64,000 nt of DNA from Escherichia coli (GTDB lineage Bacteria > Pseudomonadota > Gammaproteobacteria > Enterobacterales > Enterobacteriaceae). This document shows, one piece after another, positions 27,001-30,000 of the stretch. Within the stretch, counting starts at the first letter, position 1. Each line of letters begins with the position of its first letter. The position numbers are program-made. The stretch lies in assembly GCF_030013595.1 (NCBI RefSeq), contig NZ_CP122768.1; one strand, given 5' to 3'.

Positions 27001-30000
27001 CGTGCGCCACAACCGTCCTCCGCATCCTGTCATACGCGTAAAACAGCCAGCGCTGACGTGATTTAGCACCGACGTAGCCCCACTGTTCGTCCATTTCAGC
27101 GCAGACAATCACATCACTGCCCGGTTGTATGCGCGAGGTTACCGACTGCGGCCTGAGTTTTTTAAGTGGCGGAAAATCGTGTTGAGGCCAACGCCAATAA
27201 TGCGTGCACTGGCGCGACATCCGACGCCATTCATGGCCATATCAATGATTTTCTGGTGCGTACCGGGCTGAGAGGCGGCGTAAGTGAACTGTAGTTGCCA
27301 TGTTTTACGGCAGTGAGAGCAGAGATAGCGCTGATGTCCGGCGGTGCTTTTGCCGTTACGCACCACCCCGTCAGTAGCTGAACAGGAGGGACAGCTGATA
27401 GAAACAGAAGCCACTGGAGCACCTCAAAAACACCATCATACACTAAATCAGTAAGTTGGCAGCATCACCAACAGAAGCATCGATAAAAGTTGACTTATTT
27501 CTGATACTCAGTGGCCTGGCCCTTCCTTGTTCAATATACCTGACAAAAACAATCACACTAAAATACACATCCATATCATTCTGGAAAAAACCTCTTTTCT
27601 GGTCTTATGGTATATATCATTTTCATCTTGTTTATATAATGACATGTATAGTTTTAGCAATACCTTCTGCAATTATCGTTTTATTCTTTCACTTTTATCA
27701 AAACATCACCAGAAACTGGAAGTGACAACCGCAATAATGAACATAAAAAGGCAAATCAGAATGGCAGTAAATCAATAAAGTACCATTTCATATGAATCAT
27801 CAGAAAAACGGTGGACGCGACATCCAGCACGAGGCAAAACACAGCAACAAAATAAGCCGGATATCGCGCCCTGTACTTTTCTAACTCAACTCCCGGCATT
27901 GTGCAAGTTTTAATCGCAGGTGGATTCAGAGCCACGCCCCCATTGATTCAGCCTGAAGACACGTATATCCTTGGAGAAAGCAGGAATCTCATTGCTGTGA
28001 AATTCCTTACAGAATCTTCAGCCCCATTTTATGGGGCTTTTTTTGGTGCCCCCACGCTGTTACCACACTTTCGGGATGCGAATAAAAAAGCCCACAGTTT
28101 TTACACTGCGGACTTTTGTTTTTTCTTTGTGATTTGTGTGCAAGGGTGCGACTTTCGACCGAACCTTTGGCAACCGGATAGCGGGGACTGTTGTCCCCGC
28201 TGCGGTTTCTTACGGTTTACACTGCAAGAACGCCGCAATTTCCGACCACATGAAGCTTACCCTGAATTCACACGGTGATGCGTGTAACACCCAGACGGTC
28301 AGCAACATGGTCAGGCATAACATGCCCACAATGATCGTTTTTTGCGGCATAGCACTTGCTCCTTTTACAGAGAGGCGCTAACCTTCCACTTGCTGAAGGT
28401 AGATGGTCAGGGCCTCGGGTTAACGTTTAAGTTGACTCGGGGCCTTTCCACATCCGGCCTTCAGGTAATCCTTCCAGCCGTCAGCCGAAAGGCACCCGCG
28501 CGTAATGTACTGGTTTTCAGAGAGGTCCGCAATCTTCCGGTGACGAGATCATCTGCACACGCCCCGGTGGGACGGGCTAACGGTATATTCAGGTGCAGGA
28601 TCTCTCTGTCTGGTGCGTTTTTAAATTGTCAAACGCACCCTGGCGGCAAAATCAGCCACCTTTTTTCGCATCAACAAAACGCCCAAAACGCTGGGTAAAG
28701 CGTGCAACATTACCTTCTGAAGCGACAGTTCTCAGTTTACCTGTATAAAACGGATGCGACTTAGAAGAAACGTCAATTGTAACATATGGGTAAGTTACAC
28801 CATCCAGTTCAATTACCCGGTCAGTTTTGATCGTCGAACCGATCCTGAAGTACTCATCAATACTGGTATCGTGAAATACTACTGTACGGTATTCCGGATG
28901 GATATTCGGTTTCACAACAGTTTTCCCCCTTTAAGTGAAAATTCCGCATAAAGGTACATATTCAGACGGTCAGATTCAACTGTCTGTTCTTATAACCTCA
29001 CTCTCTTTCAGTATTACAATATGTTATATAATTATAAACTGGACTTCCCGAAAAAATCCATTAAATAAGAAGCGAGCCGTTGCGGAGGCTTGCTCTCTCC
29101 TTTAACCTCATGTGCAATATCCGTAACGCGCTCACATAAATCATCATCTGATAATATAACAACACCCATTATTTTATTCTGACCTAAAAACTTCTTATGA
29201 AATAAACGTTTACCCGACGTATCTGATCCCGCTGTTTTTACCTGTATCCTTTAACATACTTGAGAAGCCCGCTGAAAAAATATACCGTAAAGGCGGTTCT
29301 CTGTCTTCCATAAACCTGTCGGATAAGAAGGGCATTAAATGAAAACCAAAAAAGTTATGATGATTGCACTGGTCAGCTCTGCGCTGGCTCTTTCAGGATG
29401 TGGAGCCATGGGCACAGCGATCAAAAAACGAAATCTGGAAGTAAAAACCCAGATGAGTGAAACCTGAGGTAGCCTGAGTTTAACGGACACTCCTTCCTGA
29501 AATAGAATGGCATCAGAAGGAGCTAATAATGAGCAGAAAAACCCAACGTTACTCTAAAGAGTTCAAAGCCGAAGCTGTCAGAACGGTTCTTGAAAATCAA
29601 CTTTCGATCAGTGAAGGCGCTTCCCGATTATCTCTTCCTGAAGGCACTTTAGGACAATGGGTTACCGCCGCCAGAAAAGGGCTCGGTACTCCTGGTTCCC
29701 GCACGGTGGCTGAACTGGAATCTGAAATTCTGCAACTGCGTAAGGCGTTAAATGAAGCTCGCCTTGAGCGAGATATATTAAAAAAAGCAGCTGTAGATTC
29801 AATCTGTCAATGCAACACCCCTTTCAATTATCTCTTTCACTGCCCGCGACGGTATCGGTTATCAGTTTGACCTGCTGGCTAACGGTGAAACCGTACTGCG
29901 TGATGCATCCGGCGAAAAACGCATCAAGGGTGAAAAAGACGGTCGTATGCTCATGAATGTTGGCCTGAATGCGGAAATTCGCGACAACATCCGCTTCGGT

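Follow-up and report, generated by a model that had tools for sequence, protein, structure and literature searches.

The window analysed here is a stretch of 64,000 nucleotides (nt) from Escherichia coli (assembly GCF_030013595.1, contig NZ_CP122768.1). On the minus strand it carries a small locus of the hok/sok type, in which a toxin gene (hok) is accompanied by a predicted antisense gene resembling sok. The locus adjoins a gene for a type B L31 ribosomal protein and lies downstream of ureDABCEFG. An earlier note on this DNA had taken it for a Hok/Gef type I toxin locus, and this assignment is supported by the present analysis. The features of the locus are as follows.

28532..28504, minus strand: predicted hok promoter, with -35 TTGCGG (28532-28527), a 17-nt spacer, -10 TACATT (28509-28504) and 6 nt to the G at 28497
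28497..28144, minus strand: predicted hok mRNA core of 354 nt, from 5' GGGUGCC to 3' GCACCC, placed by the Rfam start, the fold and the extent of the relatives
28497-28481, minus strand: 5' fold-back partner (tac-like) GGGUGCCUUUCGGCUGA, predicted to pair with 28160-28144; nearly invariant in the family
28397-28394, minus strand: UUCA loop motif of the YUNR type, predicted contact of the Sok 5' end; the Sok tail is complementary to the loop
28364-28359, minus strand: hok Shine-Dalgarno sequence AAGGAG, with 8-nt spacing to the ATG, read from the sequence
28350..28210 including the stop codon, minus strand: hok toxin open reading frame (ORF), 46 amino acids, RefSeq WP_001135715.1, from profile matches and annotation
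28238-28230, minus strand: segment of the IAAF codons, UUGCGGCGU, predicted to pair with the start-codon region AUGCCGCAA (28350-28342)
28201-28180, minus strand: 3' stem-loop right after the stop codon (-18.6 kcal/mol, z=-6.3), presumed stop point of 3' trimming
28160-28144, minus strand: 3' fold-back element (fbi-like) GGUCGAAAGUCGCACCC, ending GUCGAAAGUCGCACCC, predicted to pair with 28497-28481; the conservation of the family ends here
28117-28084, minus strand: intrinsic terminator followed by UUUUUU (-18.6 kcal/mol, z=-7.2), 27 nt past the fold-back element
28356..28384, plus strand: predicted sok promoter, with -35 TTGCTC (28356-28361), a 17-nt spacer and -10 TAACCT (28379-28384)
~28392-28448, plus strand: predicted Sok-like antisense RNA of ~57 nt with inferred ends (fold -26.9 kcal/mol)
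28639-28612 (28640-28611), minus strand: hairpin of 9 base pairs (-13.8 kcal/mol, z=-5.0) outside the module, which the earlier note had placed at the 5' end of the mRNA

The peptide encoded by the hok ORF is MPQKTIIVGMLCLTMLLTVWVLHASPCEFRVSFMWSEIAAFLQCKP. It is composed of a single hydrophobic helix followed by C27-E-F-R30 and E37-I-A-A-F41. The 46-residue frame, its ribosome-binding site (RBS) and the Hok/Gef motifs described in the earlier note were thus all recovered, and the alignment with Hok/Gef toxins that it had proposed gave specific matches. Pfam HOK_GEF (PF01848) matched with E=1.1e-5 and 25.4 bits, residues 11-44 falling on model positions 9-42 of 42. The best NCBIfam match was HokA (E=1.1e-7) and PHROG 251 matched with E=9.2e-17. 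Because the Pfam, NCBIfam and PHROG profiles all match, the ORF, RBS and motifs are regarded as real and the similarity as specific. By the PF01848 match the peptide is assigned to the Hok/Gef toxin family, in line with its RefSeq product name, Hok/Gef family protein. Judged from its sequence, it is HokA-like but not HokA. The ORF is under purifying selection, pN/pS (nonsynonymous to synonymous change) between the window and its relatives being 0.23-0.61. A search of solved structures with the peptide gave no match, and a literature search on its C-terminal motif found no paper.

The inferred hok mRNA measures ~354 nt to the 3' fold-back element and ~416 nt to the terminator at 28117-28084, which is the probable end of the primary transcript; the ~500 nt proposed earlier was too long. 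The Rfam model RF01794, which is named 'sok' and matched on the hok strand, aligned in full length (model 1-157) at 28497-28339, with its position 1 at 28497. The 354-nt RNA (28497-28144) has a minimum free energy (MFE) of -156.9 kcal/mol (z=-7.3). In the MFE fold its two ends are joined by a helix of 17 base pairs with a 2-nt bulge, with a pairing probability (P) of 0.99 between tac and fbi, and this pairing survives inclusion of the downstream terminator. A long-range pairing between the 5' end (tac) and the 3' element (fbi) is therefore present as a predicted fold. In the same full-length fold, the hok Shine-Dalgarno sequence is enclosed in a local hairpin (AGCGC:GUGCU and CUCU:GGAG) with an unpaired probability of 0.01. 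The helix between the start codon and the IAAF codons corresponds to consensus helix 9 of the family, which has 10 pairs, 98.8% of cells paired and is nearly invariant; nine of the ten are formed in the window.

Relatives of the locus are widespread in E. coli. A sensitive DNA search found them in 1749 of 5426 genomes at 2974 places, 2956 chromosomal and 18 on plasmids. The blastn relatives span positions 1-358 of the 361-nt query (28500..28140), and 17 distinct copies (L002-L018) were fetched for alignment and context. Some of these are situated after ogr at the end of P2-like prophages, including the closest relative outside the island (88%), others in lambdoid or Shiga toxin (Stx) phages, with lom or J on one side and the following gene on the other, and a minority beside trbA on IncI plasmids. 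The same conserved block is found in all three contexts. The alignment shows similarity from the hok promoter's -35 box up to GCACCC in the 3' element. Outside this block the flanking sequences are unrelated, the one exception being a downstream terminator that the P2-like copies share, the IncI copies have in degraded form and the Stx-phage copies lack. These sharp limits mark a self-contained module, with the hairpin at 28640 outside it. The unrelated flanks and the distribution of the relatives also argue against the plasmid-maintenance remnant suggested in the earlier note. This candidate was rejected, as nearly all related places are chromosomal and the sampled relatives lie mostly in P2-like and lambdoid/Stx prophages; the hok module is intact and not a remnant.

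The hok ORF has 46 codons in 13 of the 17 copies and 45 in the three IncI copies, and a frameshift was found in one Stx2a phage copy. In this last copy (L018, phage Stx2_13E027, locus 404-758) an extra G shifts the frame near the C-terminus, giving 44 amino acids and the loss of the AAFLQCK end. Such a copy may be inactivated; a set of Stx2a phages carries it, at 74% identity. In phage VT2-Sakai (AP000363; L016, locus 404-758) the module lies between lom and orf66 without annotation in the record, and at the corresponding place many Stx phage records have either a "hypothetical protein" or nothing annotated. Where phage relatives are labelled 'MokW-like host killing', the words name a PHROG family and not an identity.

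The structure of the mRNA is conserved along with its limits. The RNAalifold consensus of the 17 relatives contains 82 pairs with 97.7% of cells paired, as against 35-44% when the partners were slid by 1-3 columns, and compensatory changes were seen in 10 consensus pairs versus 0-3 in the slid controls; the consensus was derived from the same alignment it was scored on, which favours it. The end-to-end helix accounts for 13 consensus pairs, 97.5-100% paired, with six one-sided pair-preserving changes. Variation of the 3' element among the relatives is exclusively of the pairing-preserving kind (G-C to G-U, U-G to U-A). In all 17 relatives the MFE fold joins the 5' end to the extreme 3' end (mean P=0.98). 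Other conserved helices lock the RBS into a local hairpin and join the start codon to the AAF codons. The stem-loop at 28201-28180 (helix 15) shows four pairs with compensatory changes. Upstream of the mRNA, TTGC and TAnATT of the hok promoter are kept at equal spacing in relatives from unrelated contexts.

On the opposite strand, a cis-encoded Sok-like antisense gene is predicted from the sequence. Its promoter was found near the place at which the earlier note had suggested to look for one, and its -35 overlaps the hok Shine-Dalgarno sequence. The -10 is invariant in all 17 relatives, and the -35 is TTGCTC, TTGACT or TTGCCT at a distance of 17-18 nt. This layout presumably matches that of the R1 sok promoter (TTGCGC-17-TATCCT). 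The predicted RNA has a single-stranded 5' tail of ~17 nt, a GC-rich hairpin of 15 base pairs (28410-28445) and then UUUC. The tail-plus-hairpin shape recurs in 15 of 17 sequences, L002 and L009 having yielded no extracted RNA. The 5' tail is not the same in all subgroups, and compensatory changes are found in the upper stem. The UUNR of the target loop is retained in all relatives within an otherwise variable stretch.

The leader differs from that of the classical system in one respect. In plasmid R1, hok is translated only if the overlapping mok frame is translated too, and it is this translation of mok that Sok blocks (PMC9841398). Here, a search for mok in all frames, with rare start codons, as a hokA-like in-frame extension and from the AUG at mRNA position 45, revealed no conserved leader ORF. 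The hok frame is closed 10 codons upstream by an invariant UAG, which is the complement of the invariant sok -10. The chromosomal hokA of O157 has an in-frame mokA whose AUG stands 7 nt after GAGG, whereas the window has AUC (28403-28401) at that position, which differs among the relatives. Counted from the GGTTAG box to the hok AUG, the leader has 10 nt fewer than in O157 hokA, and this shift of frame brings the UAG of the box in frame with hok. The sole conserved upstream AUG is that at position 45 (28453-28451, minus strand), which follows GAAGG and is invariant in the subfamily. It heads ORFs of 1 to 78 codons and only two of 17 reach hok, and it is probably kept for RNA pairing and for the Sok terminator rather than for coding. 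As mok is lacking across the relatives, its absence is a trait of the subfamily and not a lesion of the window copy. It is the sole defining feature of the classical locus that was looked for and not found; the peptide is therefore filed in Hok/Gef and the locus described as hok/sok-like without recognisable mok. We tentatively propose, short of favouring it, that this 46-residue, mostly prophage-borne subfamily, with relatives in about one third of the complete E. coli genomes, is a hok/sok variant which works without mok. If so, the antisense RNA would control the hok RBS indirectly, through alternative mRNA folds and RNase III, and not by blocking mok. No description of a mok-independent hok/sok variant was found in the literature, and the recent Hok survey explicitly left mok, Sok and the mRNA ends unanalysed (bioRxiv 10.1101/2025.08.07.668861).

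Folding of the truncated mRNA hints at a possible switch. When the RNA was cut at the stem-loop at 28201-28180, the predicted 5' end paired anew with mRNA positions 45-60 (P=0.90). With the cut, the unpaired probability rose from 0.36 to 0.83 for UUCA and from 0.01 to 0.21 for the RBS. The direction of refolding is alike in most of the family, though weak or absent in several members. It is treated as consistent with the activation of R1 hok by 3' trimming (PMC9841398), short of a demonstration. On this model, the weak promoter at 28532-28504 would give a stable mRNA starting at 28497, whose 5' end (28497-28481) would pair with the 3' element (28160-28144) and close the molecule, keeping the RBS in its local hairpin and the start codon paired with the IAAF codons. 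The 3' element would be lost by slow trimming from the 3' end as far as the stem-loop at 28201-28180. The freed 5' end would then pair with GGAAAGGCCCC (mRNA positions 49-59) and the UUCA loop would be exposed. To this loop the antisense RNA (~28392-28448) would bind by its single-stranded 5' tail, and the duplex would presumably be cleaved by RNase III. Once the antisense RNA is exhausted, toxin would be made and the inner membrane damaged. The analogy with plasmid R1 hok/sok is the source of the proposed 3' processing, RNase III cleavage, Sok instability and biological role. By the same analogy, the module could serve the retention of the island or prophage, phage exclusion or help in lysis.

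The coding sequence and its peptide are letter-for-letter identical to 82_1289 of the 2025-26 Hok catalogue of Escalera-Maurer et al., which was cloned in pAZ3 as construct LRP165 and overexpressed (bioRxiv 10.1101/2025.08.07.668861). According to the text of that preprint, 42 of 45 Hok constructs were toxic and the non-toxic ones are named as 19_179, 60_1482 and 69_1540 (bioRxiv 10.1101/2025.08.07.668861). Since 82_1289 is absent from these three, it would be among the toxic ones, and the suggestion in the earlier note that the locus may still be toxic fits this published test as far as the preprint text goes. The same catalogue contains relatives found here (MSQKSL...FAAFLQCKQ) as 72_1589 and 72_1621, and it reports hok genes to be enriched in prophages, as are the relatives in this study. 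Its tests were made with the coding sequence only, under an arabinose promoter with a fixed RBS, and the RNA layout is not in it. In O157 genomes, 12-14 Hok genes were counted in earlier surveys (PMC2887945).

Compared with R1 hok/sok/mok (parB), the locus shares a small membrane toxin with C-E-x-R and E-x-A-A-F, a stable mRNA that is closed when its two ends pair, a stem-loop downstream of the stop codon and ahead of the 3' element, a start codon paired with the AAF codons, an antisense -35 overlapping the hok RBS, an antisense RNA made of a 5' tail and a hairpin, and a target loop of the YUNR type. It differs in having a leader 26 nt shorter (hok AUG at +148, ~+174 in R1), no mok frame, a toxin of 46 instead of 52 residues, a Pro in place of the usual Leu before the conserved Cys, and an Rfam score below the gathering threshold. 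It is also chromosomal, on islands and prophages, and not in a plasmid partition region. With the chromosomal hokA/mokA/sokA it shares the MPQK start, the AAFL-x-CK end, both cysteines, the 5' end GGGUGC, the 3' end GCACCC and the GGTTAGC box, which is the complement of the sok -10. Among prophage-borne systems of the same type in enterohaemorrhagic E. coli (EHEC) O157, hokW/sokW of the Stx2 prophage Sp5 of strain Sakai was shown to function as a type I toxin-antitoxin pair that needs RNase III and Hfq and aids phage release (PMC8621323). Identity with it was rejected, as HokW is a different protein of 51 residues (the cloning primer encodes MKQQKAM...) at another phage position (PMC8621323). 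The 46-residue relatives found here in Stx phages are placed between lom and the next ORF.

That the locus is a hok/sok-type module with the layout given above is regarded as nearly certain. The full statement is considered probable; it holds that the urease/tellurite island of EHEC carries an intact type I cassette of the hok/sok kind, belonging to a HokA-like subfamily with toxins of 46 residues, and that this cassette acts by the proposed mechanism. Present-day activity as a toxin-antitoxin pair is held to be somewhat likely. Several points weigh against this reading. The mRNA ends, the antisense RNA and the processing are predictions throughout. The RF01794 match reached 50.5 bits (E=1.2e-9), short of the family's gathering score of 59, and is missing from the scan made at gathering threshold. 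The cut-offs of the NCBIfam HokA equivalog (NF007290; 31.8 versus 89 bits) and of the Hok subfamily (NF007279; 23.7 versus 73 bits) were not reached. A consensus promoter scan of 28000-28750 brought neither the hok nor the sok promoter above threshold, so both were placed by position and conservation. The 5' element is invariant, and the end-to-end helix therefore shows no two-sided changes, that is, no true covariation. The predicted opening of the RBS in the cut mRNA is modest, and weak in several relatives, which is why it is not put forward as demonstrated. That 82_1289 is toxic is deduced by exclusion from the text of a preprint. Lastly, no AUG, GUG or UUG frame in the window leader, in any of the frames, reaches the hok start, and chromosomal hokA, hokB and hokC are cited in the preprint text as incapable of post-segregational killing (bioRxiv 10.1101/2025.08.07.668861).

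The last two points also speak for the best surviving alternative, in which the locus is a silent relic, intact in appearance and inert, which without mok is never translated and persists only through the recent spread of the island. It would agree with the need for mok translation in R1 (PMC9841398). Across ~570 complete genomes of E. coli (serotypes O157, O26, O111, O103 and O145), the 751 bases that surround the locus show 100% identity, which reflects recent spread and not proven selection. Against it, the lack of mok belongs to the whole subfamily, whose ORF is under purifying selection. Both promoters, the antisense hairpin and the end-to-end helix are kept over ~25% nucleotide divergence in three kinds of mobile elements, and the peptide itself is reported toxic as far as the preprint text allows. 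A silent relic is thus considered unlikely, though it deserves to be weighed, and the intact cassette is preferred.

A second alternative is read-through, by which transcription from the upstream L31 paralogue gene would enter hok and give a co-regulated mRNA, extended at its 5' end and bearing the 28640 hairpin. In its favour, L31 and hok share a strand, and the L31 stop (28652) is only 154 nt away from 28497. Lacking a U tract, the hairpin at 28639-28612 is not an obvious terminator. Against it, the hok module is self-contained and occurs beside many different upstream genes, and an extended 5' end would permit the same internal pairing. We consider such read-through improbable.

Still less credible is a layout in which the mRNA starts near 28640 and the hairpin at that place pairs with the 3' end, as the earlier note had it. 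The hairpin exists and is complementary to the 3' element: it begins GGGUGCGUUUGAC, which can pair with GUCGAAAGUCGCACCC (duplex -20.6 kcal/mol) and resembles the true 5' element. The 28497 element, however, forms the better duplex (-26.2 kcal/mol). When the 497-nt transcript proposed in the note was folded, its 3' end still paired with 28497-28481 and 28640-28611 formed a separate hairpin; in the ensemble of this long transcript the 3' GCACCC paired with the 28497 region with P=0.63 and with the 28640 region with P=0.13. On these three results 28640 was rejected as the 5' end. It lies 12 nt past the stop of the L31 paralogue, lacks a promoter of its own in the consensus scan and is found in the flanks of none of the 17 relatives. 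The fold-back partner is taken to be 28497-28481 because the Rfam model starts there, the fold prefers it, -35 and -10 boxes stand just upstream, and conservation across the 17 relatives starts at this promoter and stops at the 3' element. The idea of a tac/fbi-like fold-back mRNA and its 3' element at 28160-28144 thus held good, and the 5' end had been misplaced by 143 nt. A start at 28640 is accordingly given very little chance.

The likeness of this hairpin to a hok 5' element (GGGUGCCUUUCGGCUGAC) may be a coincidence or a relic of another hok 5' end, or it may be relevant if read-through occurs.

A chance hydrophobic ORF unrelated to Hok, for which only shortness and hydrophobicity speak, is practically out of the question, refuted as it already is by matches of three independent profile libraries and the leader RNA model and by relatives of conserved architecture in 1749 genomes; the peptide is not a generic hydrophobic one.

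The locus was already known, in that the gene is annotated and catalogued and its peptide has been tested for toxicity, and it is for this reason of little importance as a discovery. Only the revised RNA map and the missing mok frame of the subfamily are new. The map (promoter, 5' end at 28497, antisense gene, 3' stem-loop, fold-back and terminator) is useful for annotating type I loci in EHEC islands and in Stx and P2-like prophages. The absence of mok in a large Hok subfamily offers a small testable point on the generality of the R1 mechanism.

EHEC carries the hok cassette as a small accessory module of its urease/tellurite island. Apart from an IS1 insertion, whose flanks are 99.6-99.9% identical, the window and O157:H7 strain TR01 are collinear. 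Disruption of the hok module by this IS1 was considered and rejected, as the insertion sits ~620 nt past the hok terminator. A traT fragment does lie nearby, as the earlier note had observed, but the L31 paralogue gene is situated between it and hok. Together with a transposase and an autotransporter fragment it forms gene debris between ureG and the L31 gene. The neighbouring features are listed below.

26702-27465: IS1 insertion relative to TR01, with insA/insB ORFs at 27139-27414 and 26717-27220 on the minus strand
28915-28652, minus strand: type B (zinc-independent) L31 ribosomal protein paralogue, solitary in the island, with the hok module downstream
29339-29467, plus strand: N-terminal fragment of the TraT lipoprotein, 42 codons, pseudogene in TR01
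29529-29870, plus strand: transposase fragment, pseudogene in TR01
29947-30078, plus strand: autotransporter beta-barrel fragment, pseudogene in TR01

In the ykgM-ykgO pair of K-12, an L36 paralogue follows that of L31; none follows in the island. A scan for a Zur-box-like pattern upstream of the L31 paralogue gave no convincing match, and an AT-rich near-palindrome is present there at ~29016-29036.

Other RNA and repeat features lie elsewhere in the window, in the whole of which no tRNA gene was found.

2257-2330, minus strand: EHEC small RNA Esr41, Rfam match above the gathering score
25534-25685, minus strand: STAXI RNA, Rfam match above the gathering score
33179-33457, plus strand: 5' ureB small RNA, antisense within the urease operon, Rfam match above the gathering score
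55144-55278: RtT RNA match (Rfam)
55087 and 55265: copies of a 54-nt direct repeat
55381-55408: CRISPR-DR4 repeat match, with a second 20-nt copy at 55329-55348 at a spacing of 60

The CRISPR-DR4 pair looks like a CRISPR remnant of two repeats.

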